In this document: piece after piece, positions 7,897 to 18,296 of the stretch
Layout: each line of letters begins with the position of its first letter
How positions within the stretch are numbered: the first letter of the stretch is position 1
Origin: Chlamydiales bacterium
GTDB lineage: Bacteria > Chlamydiota > Chlamydiia > Chlamydiales > SM23-39
Direction of reading: 5' to 3'
Length of the DNA: 64,000 nucleotides
Assembly (NCBI GenBank): GCA_030681135.1
Contig: JAUXXF010000019.1
Coordinates: 16,578 to 80,577 of the forward strand
The notes under the pieces: generated by a model
Seen by the model: the letters and a program-made list of their open reading frames with translations, nothing else
The model's database searches: none
What the model was told of the DNA's origin: nothing
Program-made: the position numbers and the translations under genes

Positions 7897-9342
7897 GTGA
7901 AACCGTTTGCTGTCATTCTTTTACTACTTTTTATCAGTTCCTGCCATGTTGGCCCCCGTTATGAAGGACCTTCTTCTGACGCTCCGGCTGATTGGAAAGG
8001 CTCTTCCATGGAAGCCACCGATGCGGCAGTTGAAAACTGGTGGGATATTTTTTGCGACGAGAAGCTAGATGAGCTCGAGAGGCTTGCTATCGAAAATAAT
8101 CGCAATTTGTACATGGCTCTTGAAAAAGTTGCAGAAGCTAGAGCCGTCGCCGGGGTTGCCAAATCAACTCTTTATCCTCAGGTCTATGCGAATCCTGCCT
8201 TTAATAACCTGAATGAGCTGATCAAACTCTACGGAGTTCCTCAGAGTCTATTTCCTGGTCTCAAAACGATCTCAAGAGTGCATGAACAGTCGTATTTGTT
8301 GCCAGTGACGATGAGCTATGAGGTGGATTTGTGGGGGAAATATCGGGGCACATACAATGCAGCGACGATTTACGCTCAGGCGAAAGATGAGGCTGTTAGA
8401 GTCACTCTCTTAACGATCACCACGGAAGTGGCGAGCCACTATTTTAATCTTAGAGCGGTAGATACCCAAATTGCCCTTCTAGAACAAATTCTCAACCTCC
8501 GAAAAGAGCTTTTCTCTCTCATCAAATCGAGATATCAATCTGGTCTTGTCAGTTATCTAGATTATCTCGATGCAGAAAAAATTCTCGCAGACACCGATGC
8601 CGAGTATCAAGAGAGCGTTCGTCAAAGATCCGTCTTTGAAAATGCCCTAGCATCTCTTTTAGGAACGATTGCTTCTGGTTTTTGCTTACCCCCTTCTCCT
8701 CTTTTGACTCCTCCTCCTCCCATTCCATCTGGCATCCCCTCTGAGATGCTCATGCGAAGGCCAGATCTAGCTCAAGCAGAAAGAGCCATGGCTGGGTTTC
8801 ATGAACTCATTTCCGTTGCCTACTCCACCTATTTTCCTTCCATTCTCCTCACTTCCGCCCTTGGGTTTTCCAGCCCCGATCTCTCGCAATTTCTCAACTG
8901 GACAGGTCGTTTATGGCAGATTGGCATCGACATCGCCCAAGTGATTTTTAACGGCGGTCGCAATCGCTCCTACGTAGAAGCTGCCTACGCTCGCTTTCGA
9001 GAGGCTAAAGCCTACTACGAACAAACTGTTTTCACAGCCTTTCAAGAAGTCGAAGATGCCCTAAACAATGTCGAGCAGTCTTCCCTTCAATTCAACGCCT
9101 TGCAAATCGCCTCAACATCTTCTCAACGTTTCTCCGGTCTCTCTGAGCTACGTAACGCAAAAGGTCTCGTCAATTCCCTCGACACCCTCTCTGCTCAGCG
9201 CGCAGCTCTCGATGCCGAACGAACCTCCATGAACGCTCTCGGTCGGCGCTATCAAGCAGCCATTCAACTCATCAAAGCTCTCGGTGGTGGCTGGGAAGGA
9301 TGTTCACCTTATCTTGGGGCTCCGCCCTCCGGAGACGGCTAA
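7897..9342 (+). CDS. NodT/OprM-family efflux outer-membrane lipoprotein
   Basis: Lipobox ISSC-HVGP; WWDIF.DEKL, SYEVDLWGK, PSEML.RRPDL, AFQEVEDAL, LIKALGGGW. The last residues are encoded by the REP/MITE. Confidence 0.93.
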   Translation: MKPFAVILLLLFISSCHVGPRYEGPSSDAPADWKGSSMEATDAAVENWWDIFCDEKLDELERLAIENNRNLYMALEKVAEARAVAGVAKSTLYPQVYANPAFNNLNELIKLYGVPQSLFPGLKTISRVHEQSYLLPVTMSYEVDLWGKYRGTYNAATIYAQAKDEAVRVTLLTITTEVASHYFNLRAVDTQIALLEQILNLRKELFSLIKSRYQSGLVSYLDYLDAEKILADTDAEYQESVRQRSVFENALASLLGTIASGFCLPPSPLLTPPPPIPSGIPSEMLMRRPDLAQAERAMAGFHELISVAYSTYFPSILLTSALGFSSPDLSQFLNWTGRLWQIGIDIAQVIFNGGRNRSYVEAAYARFREAKAYYEQTVFTAFQEVEDALNNVEQSSLQFNALQIASTSSQRFSGLSELRNAKGLVNSLDTLSAQRAALDAERTSMNALGRRYQAAIQLIKALGGGWEGCSPYLGAPPSGDG

Positions 9343-9538
9343 CGAATTTAGATTTCGTCGATTTTAGGGATTATTTTGGCCGATTTTCGATTCTCTTTCG
9401 GGGGGTCATATGCTGAAAGTCGATATTACCCCCCGAAAGAGAATCAAAAAGCGGCTCAAAAGAACCCTAAAATCGACTGAAACTAAATCCGTTAGCCGTC
9501 TCTTCCCCCGCCAAAGGACTGACGTCCTCTGGACTCCC
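9316..9538 (+). repeat. REP-like repeat split by MITE family A
   Basis: GGGGCTCCGCCC (9316-9327) [insert] CCCCGCCAAAGGACTGACGTCCTCTGGACTCCC. Confidence 0.9.
9332..9502. mobile_element. 171-bp palindromic MITE family A, copy 1
   Basis: Ends GAGACGGCTAACG...CGTTAGCCGTCTC; full-length imperfect inverted repeat homologous to 18362-18532 and 35223-35391. Confidence 0.88.
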
Positions 9539-9544
9539 ATTTGT

Positions 9545-9694
9545 TTTTATAGATCTGGACATGCGATGTTGTGGCAGAACTCTGATCTCTACGTTGCAAC
9601 CTAGCAAGGTGAGATAGCTCACAAGTATGTCGTTACTGAAATCATTAAATTTTCCAGTCATGAGGGCAGAGATCACACCGAGCTTTCTTGCCAT
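9545..9694 (-). pseudogene. remnant of an XRE/HTH_37 (HigA-like) helix-turn-helix gene
   Basis: MARKLGV-ISALMTGKFNDFSNDILVSYLTLLGCNVEIRV resembles the C-terminal half of HTH_37 proteins, apparently with a short deletion in the recognition-helix region. Confidence 0.55.
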
Positions 9695-10563
9695 GTGAAA
9701 ATAACTCCCGGGCGACAAAATAGCTTAGATTTTTTTGGATTAATAGAAGACAGACTTTCATTGAACTTTTCTATTGCTTCTGACACGCGTTTACAGGCCT
9801 CTGGTAACTTTTCATTGGAGGAATGTTGAACCATAATTTGTTCCACTTTTCCCCAATATAAAGCGAACAGATTTTCCAAAGCCTTAAATGATTCAATGAA
9901 CTTGGATTGCAGATCATTGATTTTATTTATATCTATCGAAGCAGCTTGACTTGTAGCGGTCGATAAGATGTTGTTGTGAATATGCAAAACCATATCAGCC
10001 TGATCGCAATGAAGTTTAGCTACTGTCTTTATTCCTGAGTGTGGTGGTAATCCACTTTTTTCTCCAATAAGTAATTTAAGTTGCTGATCTGCTTCAAGAA
10101 ATTGTTGTATAATAAAGGATATGTCCTTAATTTTTTGTTCCAATTCAGTAAGTAATTCTTGATATATTTGATTGTTGTTTTTTGTTGCTCTTTGAACTGA
10201 GTTTGATCGGATTTGAGTGCTTATCGGAGCTGGCGTAGGTTGTGTTGAAAAAGGCTTGGAGGAAATGGGAGGTCTAGATGAAGAATTGATTTTTGGCGCC
10301 TTAGAATATTTATCTTTATTCGCCTCTTGAGTTAAGAGGGTAGGAGTTGCTGGTTTCAGATTGTTTGGGGCGCTAGGAAAGAGTAATTCGTATCCTTTGG
10401 TCCATTGCGATAGGTAAAACTCTTTATTTTGCAGACCGACTAAGTATCCGATGTAGGCAATGGCTGCTAAGGCTATTCTGCTGATTCCTTCAAATTTTTG
10501 ACAGCATGTCGAGAAGGAAGGTAAGCTTGGTAAACAGGAAATTTTTTCGCAAACTCTCATCAT
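9673..10563 (-). CDS. hypothetical protein (TM + Pro/Ser-rich linker + coiled coil; effector-like)
   Basis: 296-aa AT-rich ORF with AAGGAG RBS. Confidence 0.65.
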   Translation of the reverse strand: MMRVCEKISCLPSLPSFSTCCQKFEGISRIALAAIAYIGYLVGLQNKEFYLSQWTKGYELLFPSAPNNLKPATPTLLTQEANKDKYSKAPKINSSSRPPISSKPFSTQPTPAPISTQIRSNSVQRATKNNNQIYQELLTELEQKIKDISFIIQQFLEADQQLKLLIGEKSGLPPHSGIKTVAKLHCDQADMVLHIHNNILSTATSQAASIDINKINDLQSKFIESFKALENLFALYWGKVEQIMVQHSSNEKLPEACKRVSEAIEKFNESLSSINPKKSKLFCRPGVIFTWQESSV

Positions 10564-10623
10564 ATAACGCTCCTTTTTGAAAAAATACTAACATGATTTG
10601 CTGAATTTCCCCAAATAATTAAA

Positions 10624-10655
10624 GGAGTTCAAAGGGCTGATGCCCTCTGGACTCT
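10624..10655. repeat. partial REP (hairpin 2 with tails on both sides)
   Basis: GGAGTTCAAAGGGC-TGAT-GCCCTCTGGACTC; the right part matches the REP tails at 9526-9538 and 13508-13521. Confidence 0.75.
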
Positions 10656-10670
10656 CGTTTGTTTTTTCGG

Positions 10671-11423
10671 TTAAAGAGCTTCGTAATGAATTGGATGGAA
10701 AAAATCTTGCGGAGACATTGTACTTTTTTCAGCACCAAATTCCTTCTGAATGGTTCCATTCCCAAGGACCCATAAACGGTCGCCAAGATGTTTGGCGATC
10801 ATCGGATCATGGGTAATCAGTAAGATGGGCACCTTGTGTGTTTGGCTATATTTTTTCGCAAAAGAGAGGAGCTGAGTAGCAGAGGTTGGATCAAGGGCTG
10901 CTGTCGGCTCATCGAGGAGAAGGAGTTTAGGGGGTTTTAGGATGGACATGATAAAGGCAATCATTTGCCTTTGACCTCCTGATAAAGAGCTCATAGGAAC
11001 ATCGAGAAATTTCTCTAAGTTCAAAGGCGCAAGAAATTCTGCAACGATGTTCTCTGGAAAGGCTGCAGTGGCTCGCTGAAATCCTGCAGCTCTTTCTTTG
11101 AGAGTGGCCATTGCAAGATTTTCTCGCACTGTTAGAGCAGAACATGAGCCAAGATAGGTGTTTTGAAAAAGCCTGCTGATAAAGCCAGCTCTTTTCTGTT
11201 CAGACATGGCTGTGATATCGATGCCATCTAGACAGATAGAGCCGCTATCGGGGGGGACTTTTCCAGAAATCATATCAAACAGTGTTGTTTTCCCTGTGCC
11301 ATTAGGACCCATGATGATGACAAAATCACCTGGATTTACGGTGGCAGAAAATGACTTGAGAACATGGAGATTCTTAAATGTTTTAGATACGTTTGAAAGT
11401 TGGAGCATAGGATTACCTCTCAA
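10671..11423 (-). CDS. ABC transporter ATP-binding subunit
   Basis: GPNGTGKTT, LSGGQRQ, LLLLDEPTAALDP, ITH; real start is probably 11408. Confidence 0.95.
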   Translation of the reverse strand: MRGNPMLQLSNVSKTFKNLHVLKSFSATVNPGDFVIIMGPNGTGKTTLFDMISGKVPPDSGSICLDGIDITAMSEQKRAGFISRLFQNTYLGSCSALTVRENLAMATLKERAAGFQRATAAFPENIVAEFLAPLNLEKFLDVPMSSLSGGQRQMIAFIMSILKPPKLLLLDEPTAALDPTSATQLLSFAKKYSQTHKVPILLITHDPMIAKHLGDRLWVLGNGTIQKEFGAEKSTMSPQDFFHPIHYEAL

Positions 11424-12252
11424 TGGCCTCTTTACGCGGTTTTAATTGGATCAAGACAACAATGAGCACAGCTTTAATGAGATTATTCCAGATCGGCTGC
11501 AGCTCGAATTCGATGGTGATGGCAAAAAGTGCTTGGTAAAGGATGGCGCCTAGAATCAGACTTAAACCAAACTTCGGTTTGACCAATTCTGCTAAAATAA
11601 GCCCGGCGATCCCTGTAACAAGAGTTCCTACGCTGCCTGTAATCGAAAACAGCCCGCTCCACTGAACAAAGAGAGCGCCTGCTAAAGCAGTTAGGCTATT
11701 TGCGATGGCAAGACCTGCAATTTTATAGTGATCAACACTTTTTCCCAAAGACGTGACGATTTGAGGGTTGCTGCCAACTGCTATGAAAAGGAGTCCTAAC
11801 TCCGAACGGAGAAGTTTTCTTATTCCCAGATAAACGATTGTGACAAGGATGAGGAGAAGACAAATAGAAAGCAGAGGCGTTTTAGGAAATATCGTCCCCG
11901 ATTCTGGAAGAGGAAGGTTCGAGCTTGCCAGCTTCAAGCAAATGGAAAAAAGAGCTGTTGTGACAACAAGGCCGGAAATGAGGTTATTCATCTTCATTTT
12001 CGTGTGCAAAAGGCCTGTAACAGATCCTGCCAAAGCGCCCCCTAACATAGCTATGGGTAGCGTGATCCACGGCGATAGGCCAGATACGATCGAAAGTGCT
12101 GTAATTGCTCCTCCAAAACCAAAACCTCCTTCTGTTGTCAAATCATCGAACTTGATCACGCGAGAAGAGAGGTAGACACCCATGACAACGAAGGAATAAA
12201 TCAGCCCTAGCAAGATGACATGAAGGAGAATATGAATGATTTCGCTTCCCAT
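11413..12252 (-). CDS. ABC transporter permease (TrpY-like, BPD_transp_2)
   Basis: GVYLSSRV...DLTTEGGFGFGGA, TGLLHTK, GLAIANSLTALAGAL. Confidence 0.9.
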   Translation of the reverse strand: MGSEIIHILLHVILLGLIYSFVVMGVYLSSRVIKFDDLTTEGGFGFGGAITALSIVSGLSPWITLPIAMLGGALAGSVTGLLHTKMKMNNLISGLVVTTALFSICLKLASSNLPLPESGTIFPKTPLLSICLLLILVTIVYLGIRKLLRSELGLLFIAVGSNPQIVTSLGKSVDHYKIAGLAIANSLTALAGALFVQWSGLFSITGSVGTLVTGIAGLILAELVKPKFGLSLILGAILYQALFAITIEFELQPIWNNLIKAVLIVVLIQLKPRKEAIER

Positions 12253-12254
12253 TG

Positions 12255-13196
12255 TTATTCCTTGATGGTTTCTACTGGAAGGTTAATGTGCAAGTTTTCT
12301 GCAACGGTGTTGTTGATGACCGTTTTTGGATTGGTAGGGTTGGTAATTCCTGCAGCTTCAGGAGTCATCCCAAGAAAAAGAACTTTATGGGCCATCTCGG
12401 CTGTTTCTTTCCCCATATCTTTGTACTCTGCTCCCTGAGCCGCAAAAGCGCCTTTTTCAACCAAGGCAATATCAGAGACAAAAAGAGGGCATTGTCTAAG
12501 AGCCGTTTCTTTAACGACAAGAGTGATATTGCTAGCGACGAGATTATCATTTGGGACTAAAATCGCTTCCCCTTTCGCGCAAGCGGCTCTTACAACTTGG
12601 GATAGCTCTTCTGCAGAGTGGGCTCCGACGGTGTGATGTTTAAGCCCTTTTTTCTCAAGCGATGCTTGGATTTTTTTGACCATAATCTGAGAGTTATTTT
12701 CAGATGGGTTGTAAATTAAAGCGACCGTTTGGACATTTGGGATGAGTTGTAAGATCAGATCTGCCTGAGCATCTGTGTTCACCTGGTCAGTTGTTCCGCA
12801 GATATTTGTGTTGGGATGAATAATTCCGAGGGATAGGGGATCAGAGACTGCAGCAATGAAAATCGGCTTTTCCTTTTCAGCTCTTGCAGCCGCTTGCACA
12901 GCGGGGGTTCCAATAGCAAAAATAGCGCTGATCTTTTTACGTGAATGGAAATTTTCTGCAATGCTTTGGGCTTGTGTTAGATTTCCTTCAGCATTTTGAA
13001 CGACGAAATCGATTTTTTGTGTCGATAAACGGTTCATTTCGGCCATAAAGCCGTCTCGAGCCTGGTCAAGAGCTGGGTGGCTTGCTGTTTGTAGAATGCC
13101 AATGGTCATGACTGAGTCGGAGTTGGATGGTTTTTTAAGGACAAACCAACCAATTAAGCCAATCAAAGCAAAAATAAAAATGAATCTTGAAAACAT
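12255..13196 (-). CDS. ABC transporter substrate-binding protein (ABC_sub_bind/TrpX-like, aromatic amino acid)
   Basis: IGILQTASHPALDQARDGF, QNAEGN, AIGTPAVQ, AVSDP, IYNPSENNS, PNDN motifs. Confidence 0.9.
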   Translation of the reverse strand: MFSRFIFIFALIGLIGWFVLKKPSNSDSVMTIGILQTASHPALDQARDGFMAEMNRLSTQKIDFVVQNAEGNLTQAQSIAENFHSRKKISAIFAIGTPAVQAAARAEKEKPIFIAAVSDPLSLGIIHPNTNICGTTDQVNTDAQADLILQLIPNVQTVALIYNPSENNSQIMVKKIQASLEKKGLKHHTVGAHSAEELSQVVRAACAKGEAILVPNDNLVASNITLVVKETALRQCPLFVSDIALVEKGAFAAQGAEYKDMGKETAEMAHKVLFLGMTPEAAGITNPTNPKTVINNTVAENLHINLPVETIKE

Positions 13197-13208
13197 AGTT
13201 CTCCTTGT

Positions 13209-13242
13209 AAAATTAAAAGCCCCAGCTCAGAGGCCGGGGCTT
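13209..13242 (-). terminator. attenuator terminator hairpin
   Basis: Minus strand AAGCCCCGGC-CTCTGA-GCTGGGGCTT-TTAATTTT just upstream of the AAGGAG RBS of the binding-protein gene. Confidence 0.85.
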
Positions 13243-13296
13243 CTCAGTAAGGAGATCCCCGGCCGGGAGCCGGGGCTGTAAATGGGTCACATTTTT

Positions 13297-13380
13297 TTAG
13301 CCAGCCAGCTCCCTTCTCCTAAAGAAAGGATAATAAAACTGAGTAGCAAAAATAAAATAGTTGTTTACTGGCTGTCGCAT
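13297..13380 (-). CDS. Phe/Tyr-rich attenuator leader peptide (27 aa)
   Basis: MRQPVNNYFIFATQFYYPFFRRRELAG*: 5 Phe + 3 Tyr within 13 codons, followed by mutually exclusive GC-rich hairpins. Confidence 0.85.
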   Translation of the reverse strand: MRQPVNNYFIFATQFYYPFFRRRELAG

Positions 13381-13387
13381 GCCTAAG

Positions 13388-13415
13388 ATTCTATCAAAGC
13401 CCCCAAATTATACAA
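13388..13415 (-). promoter_or_regulatory. sigma66/70-type promoter of the leader peptide
   Basis: TTGTAT-16 nt-TAGAAT, ending 7 nt before the leader ATG. Confidence 0.55.
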
Positions 13416-13507
13416 AGCATTATTTCTTCGGATTTTTACCAAACTTGGGAGTTATGTTCGCAAGCGAATCGTATAAAATAATTTACTTTCATGGATCTGT
13501 AAATTAA

Positions 13508-13558
13508 GGGAGTCCAGAGGGCGCAAGCCCTTTGGCGGGGTTTTAGGGGCGGAGCCCC
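13508..13558 (-). repeat. intact REP-like repeat
   Basis: Minus strand GGGGCTCCGCCCC-TAAAA-CCCCGCC-AAAGGGCTTGCGCCCT-CTGGACTCCC; its first G is the last base of the permease TAG. Confidence 0.9.
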
Positions 13559-14667
13559 TAAGAGACGAAACGTCTGCGGAAGAAGTGGGCGGCGGCGGTG
13601 AGGTTGAAGATGGCGATGAGACAAAGAGGCCAGAGGTGTTGGAAGATAGCATGAGTCGGAATGTCTTTGAGGAAGAGGCTACGGCAGATGTACATGAAGT
13701 AGCGAGTGGGGTTGATGTAGGTGGCATATTGAAGCCAGACGGGCATGTTTTCGATGGGGGTAGCAAAACCTGAGAGGAGAACGGCCGGGGTGAGGAAGAC
13801 GAAGGCTCCGAGAATGGCTTGTTGTTGAGTGGCGCAGAGAGATGAGATAAAGAGACCGACTCCGGTGATGGCAGCTGTGTAGATGAATGTGGAGAGGAGA
13901 AGAAGGAAGAAAGAGCCGACGAAGGGGATGTTGAAGAAGAAGAGAACGATGCAGAAGAGGAAGAGGCCTTCGAGGAGACTGACGAGGATGGAGGGGATCG
14001 TCTTGCCGATGAGGATTTCTGAAGGGGTGAGAGGGGAGACGAGAAGCTGATCGAACGTGCCGAGTTCCCGTTCTCGCGCAATGGAAAGACATGTGATGAG
14101 AAGCGCTTCGACCATGGTCAGGATCGCAAGAAGACCTGGAACTGTAAACCACTCGTAGAGAAGATTAGGATTGAACCAATAGCGCAAGATGAGGGCGGTG
14201 GGCTGCGTGGGGATTTTTTCTCTGAAGGAGAGCTCTTTGGCAAATTGATTGATGATCGTGTTGACGTAGCCGGAGATAATTTGTGCCGTGTTCGATTTTC
14301 TGCCATCTAAGATGAGCTGCAGAGAAGGGGAGCGTTGGGAGTCGAAGAGCCGAGAAAACTCCTCGTCGATAGAAAGAACGACAGGGCCGATTTGTTCGTT
14401 GATAAAAGGAGCGATCGATTCTACCGAGGGAAGAAGGATTACGTGGGTAAAAATGGGGGAACCTTGGATCCTTTCTACAAGCTCAAATCCCTTTTCTCCA
14501 TGATCTCGGTTGAGAATGCCAATGGTTACATTTTTCACATCGAGCGTGGCGGCAAAAGAGAAAATACATAGTTGCCAGAGAGGTGGGAAAATCAAAATGA
14601 AGCGGGTTTTTTTGTCTCGCCAGAGGAAAATGAGCTCTTTGAGGATGAGAGATAAAATTCGCTTCAA
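13558..14667 (-). CDS. ABC-2 exporter permease (YbhR-like)
   Basis: LILKE...RD, LDGRKSNTAQI, WFNPNL, SIARERELGTFDQLLVSPL, LSGFATPIENMP. Confidence 0.93.
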   Translation of the reverse strand: MKRILSLILKELIFLWRDKKTRFILIFPPLWQLCIFSFAATLDVKNVTIGILNRDHGEKGFELVERIQGSPIFTHVILLPSVESIAPFINEQIGPVVLSIDEEFSRLFDSQRSPSLQLILDGRKSNTAQIISGYVNTIINQFAKELSFREKIPTQPTALILRYWFNPNLLYEWFTVPGLLAILTMVEALLITCLSIARERELGTFDQLLVSPLTPSEILIGKTIPSILVSLLEGLFLFCIVLFFFNIPFVGSFFLLLLSTFIYTAAITGVGLFISSLCATQQQAILGAFVFLTPAVLLSGFATPIENMPVWLQYATYINPTRYFMYICRSLFLKDIPTHAIFQHLWPLCLIAIFNLTAAAHFFRRRFVS

Positions 14668-15785
14668 TCCAACCTCTTTACAGTCATGTGCGCTGTGTAG
14701 AGAAAAAGAACAAGCCCGATGCCTGCCATGATCGCCAGATTATAGAAGATGAGTTTCATCACGTTGCCGGCAAGAAAAATGGTTTGAAGACAAGAGACAA
14801 AATATTTTGCAGGAATGATGTAGGTCATCCACTGAATAGGAAGCGGCATGCTGGAGATCTCAAAAATAAATCCTGAAAGAATAAAGGCAGGCAAAAATGC
14901 TGAGATAATCGCAGCCTGAGAGGCAACAAATTGGTTTTTTGAAGCAGTAGAGATCAAAAGTCCCATCCCAAGAGCAGTCCACAGAAACACCATGCTGCAT
15001 AAAGCAAGTAAAAGCCAAGATCCACGCAAAGGAATTTGGTAGACAAAAAGAGCGATGATTGTTGAGAAAAGAAACGAAATCATCCCTAAAAGAAAATAGG
15101 AAAGAAGTTTTCCTAAAACAAGCTCTGTAATCGTGACCGGAGTTGCCATCAGCGCCTCCATGGTTCCTCGTTCCCATTCGCGGGCGACGACCAGAGCCGT
15201 AAGAAGAGTCCCAATTAACGTCATGATTAACGCGATAGAGCCGGGAATGAGAAAATTGCGACTCTCCAAATCCTCATTAAACCAAAATCTAGGTTCTACC
15301 TGAATCGGCTGCCATGGGATCCAACGGCTGCTAATCGTTTCTTGGAAGAGCCAGTTTTGAAAGGCCATTTGGACATAATTATCCACAAAATTAGCGGTAT
15401 TAGGTTCGCTCCCGTCGGCAATCACTTGGATAGGAGCTATGTGATCTGCTCGCTGTCTAAAAGAAGAGAAATAAGAAGGAACAACAACAATCCCACGAAC
15501 CGATCCATCGACCAGCTTTGCATGAAACTCTCTTTGATGCCTTCCGATCTGGACAGAAAAATATTCAGAGTCTGTGAGAGCTTTGGCAAAACTTTGCACT
15601 TCGGGAGAAGTGTCTTCGAGAACAAGGCCGATTTTTAAATGTTTATAATCTAAAGAGATGCCATAGCCATAAATAAACAACAAAATGGCAGGCAAAACGA
15701 AGCTGATCAAGATGCTGCTCGGATCGCGGATGATCTGATAAAATTCTTTCACCACGAGGGCTTTAAGTCTTTTGCTGCTGATCAT
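14664..15785 (-). CDS. ABC-2 exporter permease (YbhS-like)
   Basis: KEFYQIIRDPSS, DGSEPNTANFV, VVAREWERGTMEALMATP. Confidence 0.93.
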   Translation of the reverse strand: MISSKRLKALVVKEFYQIIRDPSSILISFVLPAILLFIYGYGISLDYKHLKIGLVLEDTSPEVQSFAKALTDSEYFSVQIGRHQREFHAKLVDGSVRGIVVVPSYFSSFRQRADHIAPIQVIADGSEPNTANFVDNYVQMAFQNWLFQETISSRWIPWQPIQVEPRFWFNEDLESRNFLIPGSIALIMTLIGTLLTALVVAREWERGTMEALMATPVTITELVLGKLLSYFLLGMISFLFSTIIALFVYQIPLRGSWLLLALCSMVFLWTALGMGLLISTASKNQFVASQAAIISAFLPAFILSGFIFEISSMPLPIQWMTYIIPAKYFVSCLQTIFLAGNVMKLIFYNLAIMAGIGLVLFLYTAHMTVKRLD

Positions 15786-17454
15786 ATTGTCTAATTAATG
15801 TAATAAATGCGTCTTCTAAAGTGGGCGTTTTGTTAAGGGGCGTTTGAGCGAGGCTCTTGAGGTTATCTGGCGAATCGATGTGGATCATATGGCTTTGATA
15901 GATCAGCGCAATCCGATCGCAGTATTCAGCTTCATCCATAAAGTGGGTAGAGACCAAGATCGTGCATCCTTTTTCGACAAGGCCGTTGATGTGGTTCCAA
16001 AATTCTCGTCTTGTAATCGGATCGACGCCTGAGGTTGGTTCATCTAAAAACAGCACTTCAGGGTGATGCATTGTAGCGCAAGCCAAGGCTAGCCGCTGTT
16101 TATAGCCGAGAGGGAGGGAAGAAGTGGATAGATTAAGATAAGGGTGAAGTCCAAAAATATCGATCATCTCTTCTACAGCGTGGGAGTAGGAGCGATTTTT
16201 CAGAGGATAAACGCCAGCGAAAAAATGGAGGTTTTGTTTGACGCTAAGCCCTCCATAAAGGGAGAATTTTTGAGCCATGTAACCGATGTGGGAGCGGGCG
16301 ATTGCTGGAGCTGTTTGCAAGCTAACCCCTTCGACAAAGGCTTTGCCAGAGGTGGGTTGCAAAAGGCCGCAAAGCATTTTGAATGTGGTGGATTTTCCTG
16401 CGCCGTTGGGACCTAAGAGTCCGAATACCTCTCCTCTTCGTACTTGAAAAGAGACGTCGTCTACAGCTGTGAAAGAGCCAAAACGTTTTGTTAGGTGTTC
16501 AGCGCTGATCACGTTTTTTTGTTCTGTCAGAATGGGAGTCATCCGATCGGCCAGAGGCGAAGAGCCTCCTGGGGCGCCTCCGAGAAGATCGATAAACGCA
16601 TCCTCAAAGCGAGGAGGACACGGCGTCCAAGAAGGATCTGGCGTTGCATGTTCTTTGATGACGATCCGAATTTTTTCTCCTTGGATTGTTCCATCGAGAA
16701 CCATCTTCTGATTCAGTAAATCGGTCAATAGAGCTCTTTTTCGCGTCTCAGGACGCAAGAGAGTAAATGTTCTTCCCTCCATGCGCTCCGTCAGCTCTTT
16801 GGGAGGCCCTTGATAGAGTAGTTTTCCGCCATTGAGAAGAAGGACGAGACCTGCTTTTTCTGCTTCTTCGAGATACGCTGTGCTCCAAATGATCCCGATC
16901 CCTTCTTGGAGAAATTGTTGAATGAGATCCCACAGTTCCCGTCTCGAGATGGGATCGACGCCGACGCTAGGCTCATCGAGAAGAAGTAGAGTAGGTTTGC
17001 GAATGAGCGTACAGGCAAGTCCTAGCTTTTGTTTCATTCCGCCAGATAGATTGCCAGCCAGTCTCGTTGGATATTTCGAGAGGTTCATCATAGAGAGAAG
17101 TCGATCAAAAACGGCTTTTTTCTCCTTTTCTAAAACTCCTTGCAAGTCGGCATATAAAGAGAGGTTTTGCATCACAGTCAGATCTTCATAAAGACCAAAT
17201 CTCTGCGGCATATAGCCAATTTGGCTTTGGATCTTTTGCGCCTCTTTGACTGTATCCAGGCCATTTACGAGTATGCTGCCTTTGGTGGGCAAAAGAAGCC
17301 CTGCGATCATCCGGAGCAGCGTCGTTTTGCCAGAACCATCTGGTCCTGCAAGGGCGACAAATGTCCCTTGTGGAATCGAGGCACTGATTTGATCGAGAGC
17401 GGTTTGCTGATCGAATGTTTTTGTGACATTACGGATGTCGATCAGGGGCGCCAT
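15763..17454 (-). CDS. ABC exporter dual ATPase (YbhF-like)
   Basis: Two NBDs: GPDGSGKTT/LSGGMKQKL/LDEPSVGVDPISRR and GPNGAGKST/LPLGYKQRL/LDEPTSGVDP. Confidence 0.95.
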   Translation of the reverse strand: MAPLIDIRNVTKTFDQQTALDQISASIPQGTFVALAGPDGSGKTTLLRMIAGLLLPTKGSILVNGLDTVKEAQKIQSQIGYMPQRFGLYEDLTVMQNLSLYADLQGVLEKEKKAVFDRLLSMMNLSKYPTRLAGNLSGGMKQKLGLACTLIRKPTLLLLDEPSVGVDPISRRELWDLIQQFLQEGIGIIWSTAYLEEAEKAGLVLLLNGGKLLYQGPPKELTERMEGRTFTLLRPETRKRALLTDLLNQKMVLDGTIQGEKIRIVIKEHATPDPSWTPCPPRFEDAFIDLLGGAPGGSSPLADRMTPILTEQKNVISAEHLTKRFGSFTAVDDVSFQVRRGEVFGLLGPNGAGKSTTFKMLCGLLQPTSGKAFVEGVSLQTAPAIARSHIGYMAQKFSLYGGLSVKQNLHFFAGVYPLKNRSYSHAVEEMIDIFGLHPYLNLSTSSLPLGYKQRLALACATMHHPEVLFLDEPTSGVDPITRREFWNHINGLVEKGCTILVSTHFMDEAEYCDRIALIYQSHMIHIDSPDNLKSLAQTPLNKTPTLEDAFITLIRQYDQQQKT

Positions 17455-18296
17455 GGCGATCTCTATGTAATTTCACAGTCACAGGCATGCCCTGTTTAAG
17501 TCCCCAGTCGGGGTTATCGGCGTAGACGCGGATTCTGTAGACAAGATCGGTGCGAAGTTCTGTTGATTGGACGGTTTTAGGGGTAAATTCTGCAACAGGG
17601 GAGATGAAGCCAATTTTCCCGGTGTAGGTATTGCCCCCTTTTGTATCGGTAAAAATTTCAGCTTCCATGCCAGGATAAATAACGCCCAAGAGCGGCTCTG
17701 GAACGTAGGCTCTTACCCAGACTGGAGAGATGAGAGAGAGTGTATAGACAGGTTCTCCTTGAAGAACGACAGTTCCTGGTTCTCGGACTCTCGTTAAAAT
17801 CGTCCCATCTGCGGGGCTATAAGCTCTTGTATTGCGAAGATTGGTTTTTGCAACTCCTAAAGTGGCGACAGCCTCTTTCACCCGCTGCTCATCTACATCT
17901 CTTGCAGTCTCTGCATTTTCATAATCTTCTTGAGAAACGCCTCCTACTTTCACAAGCTCCTGGCGTCTTAAAAAAATTTGCTCCGTGTTTTCTAAAGATA
18001 GACGGGCTGCTTGTAGGCTTGCTTCCGCCCTTTTCACTTCATCAGCATAAGGCTGCGGATCGATCGATGCCATCAAGGCGCCTTTGGGAACAAAATCCCC
18101 CTCTTCGAAAGGCATTGAGCGCACATTGCCGTAGACTCGAAAGCCGATGTCTACTTGTCTGACGTCGACATTGCCATAGAGCGTGATTTCGTCTTTGTGA
18201 TTTTTATGGGTTAAGTTGAAAACCAACCAAACTACCGTGCAAGTGATCAGCACGGAAATAACCACAATCAAGATGTTTTTTATCATAGGCCTCATA
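17429..18296 (-). CDS. HlyD-family periplasmic adaptor (YbhG-like)
   Basis: LYGNVDVRQV, GFISPVAEFTPKTVQSTELRTDLVYR, QGMPVTV; start at 18296 or 18287 rather than 18331. Confidence 0.93.

Follow-up and report, generated by a model that had tools for sequence, protein, structure and literature searches.

A proposed ribosome-dependent phenylalanine/tyrosine attenuator in front of an ABC importer of a Chlamydiales bacterium

The window analyzed here is a stretch of 64,000 nt from Chlamydiales bacterium (GCA_030681135.1, contig JAUXXF010000019.1). It harbors three genes for an ATP-binding cassette (ABC) importer, which are preceded by a leader with a short upstream open reading frame (uORF) rich in phenylalanine (Phe) and tyrosine (Tyr) codons, several GC-rich segments and a predicted intrinsic terminator. 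All features of the leader are on the minus strand (Table 1). A preliminary description of this DNA had proposed that the leader acts as a ribosome-dependent attenuator that senses both amino acids. The uORF with 8 Phe/Tyr in 13 codons, all the RNA segments named there and the terminator were present in the sequence as described, and the sequence TTAATTTT directly follows the terminator hairpin (13242..13217) on its 3' side.

Table 1. Features of the leader and of the importer genes (positions in the window)
Feature	Position	Strand	Basis or remark
Extended -10 element TGATAGAAT	13388..13396	-	Sequence; proposed promoter of a leaderless leader transcript
Leader uORF MRQPVNNYFIFATQFYYPFFRRRELAG, 27 codons plus TAA	13297..13380	-	ATG at 13380, TAA at 13299..13297; homologous uORFs in relatives
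Putative regulatory codon cluster, codons 8-20, 5 Phe + 3 Tyr in 13	13321..13359	-	Sequence; enriched across loci
Segment 1, Ala-Thr-Gln-Phe codons within the cluster	13336..13347	-	Minimum-free-energy fold of the whole leader
Segment 2, predicted 5' strand of the antiterminator GGGAGCTGGCTGGCT, final uORF codons, overlaps the TAA stop	13299..13313	-	Duplex test, covariation
Segment 3 AGCCCCGGCTCCC, predicted partner of segment 2 (read-through) or of 4 or 6 (termination)	13265..13277	-	Folds, duplex test, covariation
Segment 4 GGCCGGGG, 3' arm of the first hairpin, or predicted partner of segment 5 (read-through)	13257..13264	-	Folds, duplex test, covariation of columns 67, 86 and 115
Terminator hairpin: segment 5 AAGCCCCGGC, loop CTCTGA, segment 6 GCTGGGGCTT	13217..13242	-	Terminator scan, folds, covariation
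Terminator U-run TTTTAATTTT	13209..13218	-	Sequence, terminator scan
AAGGAG ribosome site of the binding-protein gene	13201..13206	-	Sequence
Substrate-binding protein, 313 aa, PF04392 (ABC_sub_bind)	12255..13196	-	Pfam, E-value 3.9e-56
Permease, BPD_transp_2	11413..12252	-	Pfam
ABC ATPase	10671..11423	-	Pfam

The preliminary description had named conserved Phe/Tyr-rich uORFs upstream of orthologues as a check of its proposal. Such uORFs were indeed conserved upstream of orthologues and also of paralogues. Every readable close homologue had an aromatic-rich uORF at the same place, followed by GC-rich hairpins and a T-run. The distance between the stop codon of the uORF and the gene was 96-116 nt in ten loci and about 80-130 nt among related chlamydial genomes. 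The tails of these uORFs read ...SFFACQFFFFFNREERGLIR in a paralogue from the same genome (contig 27, L004), ...VFYFAYPFFFSFKKRSGENG in G019, ...SFSAARFFSFFTHKERAS and ...SFFATQFYYFYYKKELVG before the first and the second of two tandem genes in G195, ...SFFATQFFYSFNRESGD in G300 and ...SFYIYQFFYFFTKNKELVG in G334. The leaders of more distant chlamydial homologues were dominated by Tyr, for example NYYYCYYYLDSWG and SYYYYCQCSISWG. In some loci, the core of the tail, GAGC, comprises a Glu codon and the first base of a Leu or Arg codon; in others, it comprises the last base of a Glu or Arg codon followed by Ser. Since the tail is read in different codon registers between the loci, the peptide tail is not the conserved element; as judged from these sequences, selection on the tail appears to act on the RNA.

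When metagenomes were searched with an alignment of 12 binding proteins, 80 further loci were obtained, and most of them had an aromatic-rich uORF before the binding-protein gene. The control for enrichment was based on the 70 loci whose upstream sequence was 300 nt or longer; removal of redundancy left 61 of them. A uORF was counted as leader when it had at least 6 aromatic residues in 12 and ended 30-260 nt before the gene. This was the case in 29 of the 61 loci, compared to 2 of 61 on the reverse complement, and 50 dinucleotide-shuffled sets of the 61 loci contained on average 1.74 and at most 8 such uORFs. The frame of the uORF contained 7.07 Phe plus Tyr per 14 codons versus 2.16 and 3.61 in the other frames, a comparison that is biased as the frame was chosen as the maximum. 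In the genome that the window comes from, 91 of 43,787 open reading frames (ORFs) of 10-80 codons had at least 7 Phe/Tyr in 13 codons, and in the whole genome only 5 of those 91 had a terminator-like hairpin in the 140 nt behind them. These 5 ORFs include the leader in the window and the leader of the paralogous binding-protein gene.

The RNA of the leader was predicted to fold far more stably than expected by chance, with -75.7 kcal/mol compared to -55.4 ± 4.2 kcal/mol in 200 shuffled sequences (z = -4.8, none as good). Hairpins were present in 44 of 45 leaders. For these 44 leaders, pairing of the final 33 nt of the uORF with the first strong hairpin (5' arm and loop) was tested against 300 shuffled tails. 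The duplex formed by the tail was better than 95% of the shuffles in 32 leaders and better than 99% in 22. The duplex of segments 2 and 3 in the window reached -23.7 kcal/mol versus -11.8 kcal/mol in the shuffles (z = -4.2, 0 of 300 as good).

Covariation was tested in a sequence-only alignment of 13 Phe-dominant leaders from close relatives. In the helices of the read-through state (core of the tail with the 5' arm of hairpin A, and 3' arm of hairpin A with the 5' arm of hairpin B), 90.5% of the cells were paired, compared to 39-75% when the partner was slid, and the covariation score was matched by 1 of 500 shuffles. The helices of the terminated state (hairpins A and B) had 83.6% paired cells versus 23-66% for slid partners, and none of 500 shuffles reached their score. 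Column 86, in the 3' arm of hairpin A, changed from G to A in three sequences, and its alternative partners, columns 67 and 115, both changed from C to U in the same three. The chain of alternative pairings put forward in the preliminary description was thus kept in the alignment, including a three-way covariation of the middle segment that is shared by both states. For the window, two drawings of the terminated state are possible, either two successive hairpins or one long hairpin with segments 3 and 6 as outer and segments 4 and 5 as inner helix; both end in the same U-run.

To follow the position of the ribosome, folding was repeated with 28 nt masked around the A site. The long terminator hairpin formed with a ribosome at the stop codon and also with no ribosome at all. 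When a Phe/Tyr codon was occupied by the ribosome, whichever of the 8 it was, and the transcript was cut before the last arm of the terminator, segment 2 paired with 3 and segment 4 with 5. This read-through structure was also the minimum-free-energy fold of the full-length transcript when the ribosome stalled at codon 15, 17 or 19. Folding with a stalled ribosome had been suggested as a check as well, and its outcome agreed with the proposal. Duplex test, covariation and masked folding all pointed to an antiterminator that excludes the terminator and has its 5' strand under a ribosome positioned at the stop codon. The other hallmarks of an attenuator, a cluster of Phe/Tyr codons, a conserved uORF and a predicted intrinsic terminator before the gene, were found too.

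We searched 151 genomes of the order with a covariance model of the 13 leaders. Strong matches occurred only at the two binding-protein genes of the genome containing the window (E-values of 6.6e-21 and 5e-19). Four weak matches (E-values of 0.001-0.008) had neither an aromatic uORF nor a binding-protein gene behind them and were rejected as ordinary terminators or coding sequence.

The uORF may start without a ribosome-binding site. Its ATG has no usable Shine-Dalgarno sequence (an AGG ends one base 5' of the ATG), and a TAGAAT preceded by TGA, which reads as an extended -10 element, ends 7 nt 5' of the ATG. In 8 of 45 leaders, the motif TGNTANNNT ended at a distance of 5-8 nt (mostly 7 nt) from a downstream in-frame ATG, compared to only 36 of 4,242 background ATGs from the same loci, and the 8 leaders include that of the window and of its three closest relatives. 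The leaderless uORF of the preliminary description gained support from this enrichment. The promoter proposed there was not listed by a generic promoter scan, because its -35 region matches at only 3 of 6 positions; a promoter-like site at 13503..13475 was listed instead. We consider a leaderless start of the uORF as supported by these sequences, not as proven.

Taken together, we propose that a ribosome-dependent (leader-peptide) transcription attenuator precedes the three-gene ABC importer, whose substrate would be phenylalanine and/or tyrosine, and we assign a probability of about 0.62 to this interpretation. The leader is real and very probably functional. We infer that the uORF is translated from a leaderless start, that this translation is coupled to transcription, that both amino acids are sensed, and that one or both of them are the substrate. 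In this model, transcription would start a few bases 5' of the ATG of the uORF, and a ribosome would load at the 5' end and trail the polymerase. With ample charged tRNA-Phe and tRNA-Tyr, this ribosome would reach the TAA and cover segment 2. Segment 3 would then pair downstream, the GC-rich hairpin before the U-run would form, and transcription would stop at about 13210. If one or the other charged tRNA runs short, the ribosome would stall within the 13-codon Phe/Tyr cluster and leave segment 2 free for segment 3. This would release segment 4 to segment 5 and leave segment 6 without a partner, so that the terminator could not form and the importer genes would be transcribed. If the ribosome is absent, segment 1 might pair with the tail of the uORF, a pairing predicted to be weak and rich in G-U pairs.

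Several observations weigh against the proposed attenuator. The tail-pairing test was failed by 12 of the 44 leaders (p ≤ 0.05 required); in some of these the pairing strand seems to sit just 3' of the stop codon. The controls of the covariation test are inflated by the relatedness of the sequences, and one of these sequences was itself the source of the structure. In the full-length transcript, read-through is the optimal fold at only three of the eight stall sites, and the model therefore needs kinetic, co-transcriptional folding. A ribosome stalled at codon 20, the last Phe codon, covers a part of segment 2 and leaves the weakest antiterminator (-39.6 kcal/mol; the other stall sites gave about -48 to -52 kcal/mol). 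The site preferred by the promoter scan, approximately 95 nt further upstream, would result in a long untranslated leader without a ribosome-binding site. Finally, the public sequencing runs that matched the stretch were DNA contigs, and two RNA runs contained only 5% of the sampled words.

The nearest named relative of the binding-protein gene was from a Parachlamydiales metagenome-assembled genome (67% identity), and others were from Babeliales and Aerococcaceae. The transporter has a patchy distribution: it was found in 3 of 41 close relatives and in 10 of 400 sampled genomes of the phylum (E ≤ 1e-30). In the Protein Data Bank, the binding protein showed similarity to 6HNI (CD0873), 3LFT (SP1069) and 3LKV (VC_1101) with E-values of 2.8e-47, 1e-37 and 5.8e-31. 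According to passages of PMC6816091, these structures contain bound tyrosine, tryptophan and phenylalanine, respectively. The same passages state that Glu-263 of CD0873 holds the hydroxyl group of tyrosine and is replaced by Ala in 3LFT and 3LKV, and that Tyr-279 of CD0873 blocks tryptophan and is replaced by Gln in the tryptophan binder. In our alignment the protein from the window has Asp-242 at the position of Glu-263 and Tyr-258 at the position of Tyr-279. These residues would argue against tryptophan and are compatible with tyrosine and phenylalanine.

Next to Asp-242, at pocket position 243, the protein has Ile, whereas proteins behind Tyr-dominant leaders have Asn. Phe-dominant leaders (12 loci, Phe/(Phe+Tyr) ratio of 0.5-1.0) were associated with Ile, Val or Thr at this position, and Tyr-dominant or mixed leaders (28 loci, mean ratio of 0.33) with Asn. 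The Phe-dominant leaders form one clade on the tree, and the correlation with residue 243 thus represents a single evolutionary event. The match between this residue and the type of leader would therefore be only a hint.

The genome harboring the window (1.94 Mb, 33 contigs) is 97% complete. Prephenate dehydratase, prephenate dehydrogenase and biopterin-dependent aromatic hydroxylase were not found in it, while control searches were positive in known genomes. Chorismate synthase and two TyrP-type permeases were present. As no biosynthetic branch for Phe or Tyr was found, both amino acids must be imported. This agrees with the loss of the Trp, Tyr and Phe branches in Parachlamydia, Protochlamydia and Waddlia that is described in a part of PMC3937554.

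A response of the leader to both Phe and Tyr is the best reading of these data. Its main rival is the same attenuator with a sensor for a single amino acid, likeliest phenylalanine, in front of a phenylalanine importer; the Tyr codons would be tolerated neighbors that add little to the stalling. The Phe-dominant leaders in the clade of the window gene, three of them without any Tyr, fit this view, as does the interchange of Phe and Tyr between close relatives, with Tyr codons being one base away from Phe codons. However, every member of the subclade of the window (4 loci) has kept 2-4 Tyr codons beside 4-5 Phe codons, the protein has an acidic Asp at the position of Glu-263, where the phenylalanine binder has Ala, and the genome has no detected route to tyrosine either. 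We regard a sensor for Phe only as possible, if rather unlikely.

TnaC is a well-known case of ribosome stalling by a nascent peptide in response to tryptophan. The uORF described here could likewise encode an arrest peptide, perhaps one that senses free Phe/Tyr, or the control could act on translation of the binding-protein gene. The sequence Phe-Phe-Ala-Thr-Gln-Phe was found again in several leaders, which favors this view, but its Ala-Thr-Gln codons can be explained as RNA segment 1. The aromatic cluster is free in order, length and Phe/Tyr content, the Tyr-dominant leaders share no peptide motif with that of the window, and the N-terminal parts of the uORFs are not conserved. The position of the hairpins near the ribosome site of the binding-protein gene would suit translational control; against it, most loci have a U-run after the last hairpin, and the AAGGAG lies outside the hairpin. 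Both variants appear very unlikely to us.

Hardly any more credit can be given to the view that the uORF is a small gene in its own right, which would end at a terminator of its own and encode a hydrophobic peptide such as a membrane partner of the transporter, the alternative pairings being incidental. The uORF is hydrophobic and conserved beside the transporter, but neither its length nor its N-terminal sequence is conserved between the leaders, its tail is conserved as RNA and read in differing registers, pairing of the tail to the hairpin was significant in 32 of 44 loci, and one would hardly expect a terminator to separate a subunit gene from the rest of its operon. The weakest explanation, a chance ORF in a T-rich spacer followed by ordinary terminators or repeats and without regulation, can draw on the ease with which T-rich DNA yields Phe codons and on the 91 similar short ORFs of the genome, but is scarcely credible in view of the strand- and frame-specific enrichment over 61 independent loci, the fixed spacing to the gene, the covariation of both foldings and the restriction of the RNA motif to two binding-protein genes of the genome.

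The second of these genes is an orphan PF04392 binding-protein gene on contig 27 (L004/L105; 1471..2445 of L004), whose product is 54% identical to that of the window. Its leader has a uORF at 1228..1368 of L004 with 7 Phe and no Tyr, and its own terminator. The next gene is MepB-like and not a permease gene, and the orphan paralogue therefore presumably uses the permease and ATPase encoded in the window. In G195 (L024, L008; contig of the named Parachlamydiales record), two tandem binding-protein genes, each with a leader and a double hairpin, are followed by a single permease gene; their leaders contain 5 Phe and no Tyr, and 4 Phe and 4 Tyr, respectively.

As a tentative extension, which we rate as less than an even chance, the ratio of Phe to Tyr codons in the leader could be a tunable code that is matched to the specificity of the binding protein. 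Two binding proteins could then serve one permease, each switched by its own shortage, and a leaderless start would keep the first ribosome close to the polymerase. Two arrangements fit this idea: the window gene (5 Phe + 3 Tyr) together with the orphan paralogue (7 Phe), and the tandem genes in the relative. If it holds true, leader codons would predict the substrate in a poorly characterized transporter family in chlamydiae, Babeliales and other lineages.

Further variants of the leader were observed among the other loci. In the Tyr-dominant leaders L019, L020, L036, L077 and L003, Cys codons, which are one base apart from Tyr codons, often occurred within or beside the runs of Tyr (YYYCYYY, YYYYCQC, FYYCYF, FYCYYY, SYYC). 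Tyr/Phe-rich uORFs were also seen before homologous importers outside the Chlamydiota, at 1129..1182 of L014 (Aerococcaceae; MTQHSLQFNVYAYSFYY) and at 1132..1272 of L010 (Babeliales; ...LFYSYSYFTPFYYRYF), and neither locus had a T-box or other Rfam match at gathering score. With uORFs in these two lineages, the leader class appears to be widespread, and the leader in the window would be its chlamydial branch. A uORF ending in ...NIVIIRLKKVAGVV (L021 1227..1368, G106) precedes a divergent homologue with 37% identity and with Cys-Asp-Met versus Ser-Asp-Ile in the pocket. Its tail, CCGGGGT, is able to pair with the 5' arm of a strong terminator, and it may be a version of the leader that senses isoleucine/valine.

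Directly upstream of the leader is an operon for an ABC-2 type exporter (13558..17454, minus strand), which encodes a double ATPase as well as two ABC-2 membrane proteins, and a small GC-rich hairpin (about 13557..13540) follows its last gene. We also considered whether the hairpins of the leader serve as terminator of this exporter operon. This was rejected, as the operon ends at 13558, the leader has its own promoter-like element, and the leader recurs before binding-protein genes in other contexts. On the other side of the importer operon, a 296-aa ORF (9673..10563, minus strand) had no Pfam match. A gene for an outer-membrane efflux protein of the OEP family (7897..9342, plus strand) is also near the importer operon. 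A long palindromic hairpin (9360..9475) between these two convergent genes gave microRNA-type Rfam matches below threshold on both strands and is probably a bidirectional terminator.

Environmental chlamydiae are hard to manipulate genetically, and little is known of their gene regulation. The leader in the window represents a concrete regulatory element in such an organism, which by monitoring charged tRNA-Phe and tRNA-Tyr would control uptake from the host. For an otherwise unstudied ABC importer, the leader would point to a likely substrate; the organism that carries it is apparently unable to make Phe or Tyr. The same design precedes the same transporter family in many uncultured lineages, where the codon content of the leader may predict the substrate.

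Classical leader-peptide attenuators are known from Proteobacteria, such as pheL-pheA and pheM-pheST of E. coli (Rfam Phe_leader), trpL and hisL. The leader in the window resembles pheL, trpL and hisL in three respects: codons for the sensed amino acid are clustered in a short uORF, a ribosome that terminates at the stop codon would mask a strand of the antiterminator, and the antiterminator and terminator structures are mutually exclusive. In contrast to them, it controls an importer instead of a tRNA synthetase or a biosynthetic operon, it mixes codons for two amino acids, it is found in Chlamydiota, and its uORF probably begins right at the 5' end of the transcript and has no ribosome-binding site. 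The his attenuator of Salmonella and E. coli contains a relay of several alternative helices. Such a relay is common to both systems and is not counted as new here.

No Rfam leader, T-box or riboswitch was matched at E ≤ 1 in positions 9000-18000 of the window or at gathering score in 14 related loci. The only Rfam match near the site, to a small RNA family of Burkholderia (23.3 bits compared to a cut-off of 49.5), was dismissed as a chance match to GC-rich hairpins. In Firmicutes, trpXYZ-type operons are controlled by T-box leaders, for example that of TrpX in Streptococcus suis, according to a section of PMC9382623. Both systems act on the same transporter family, switch the importer on when the cognate tRNA is uncharged and have a terminator versus an antiterminator as output, but the sensor proposed for the window is a translating ribosome and not direct binding of tRNA. 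The leader in the window would be a ribosome-based counterpart of the T-box control in Firmicutes.

Within the chlamydial phylum, the leader-peptide attenuators that we found described, in the relevant part of PMC3937554, are tryptophan leaders, which is consistent with the remark of the preliminary description that only a Trp leader was known in chlamydiae. A trpL-type leader was proposed for the trpRBA operon of Chlamydia (PMC3937554, PMC7755916). Attenuation by a leader peptide has thus been proposed in the same phylum, but for another amino acid and another target, the genes for tryptophan salvage, and the sequences are unrelated. The trpRBA leader has 3 Trp in 12 residues, compared to 8 Phe/Tyr in 13 in the window.

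The binding protein from the window belongs to the PF04392 fold family like CD0873, SP1069 and VC_1101, each of which was solved with an aromatic amino acid bound. Like CD0873 it keeps Tyr at the position of Tyr-279, and unlike CD0873 it has Asp instead of Glu-263. Literature searches yielded no main text that describes a Phe/Tyr leader before this transporter family or in chlamydiae; the supplementary motif lists of PMC8632094 and the T-box tables of PMC9382623 might hold a related one. The mechanism proposed here is that of the textbook attenuators; what is new is not the principle but its place, in front of a chlamydial importer, and its scope and annotation.

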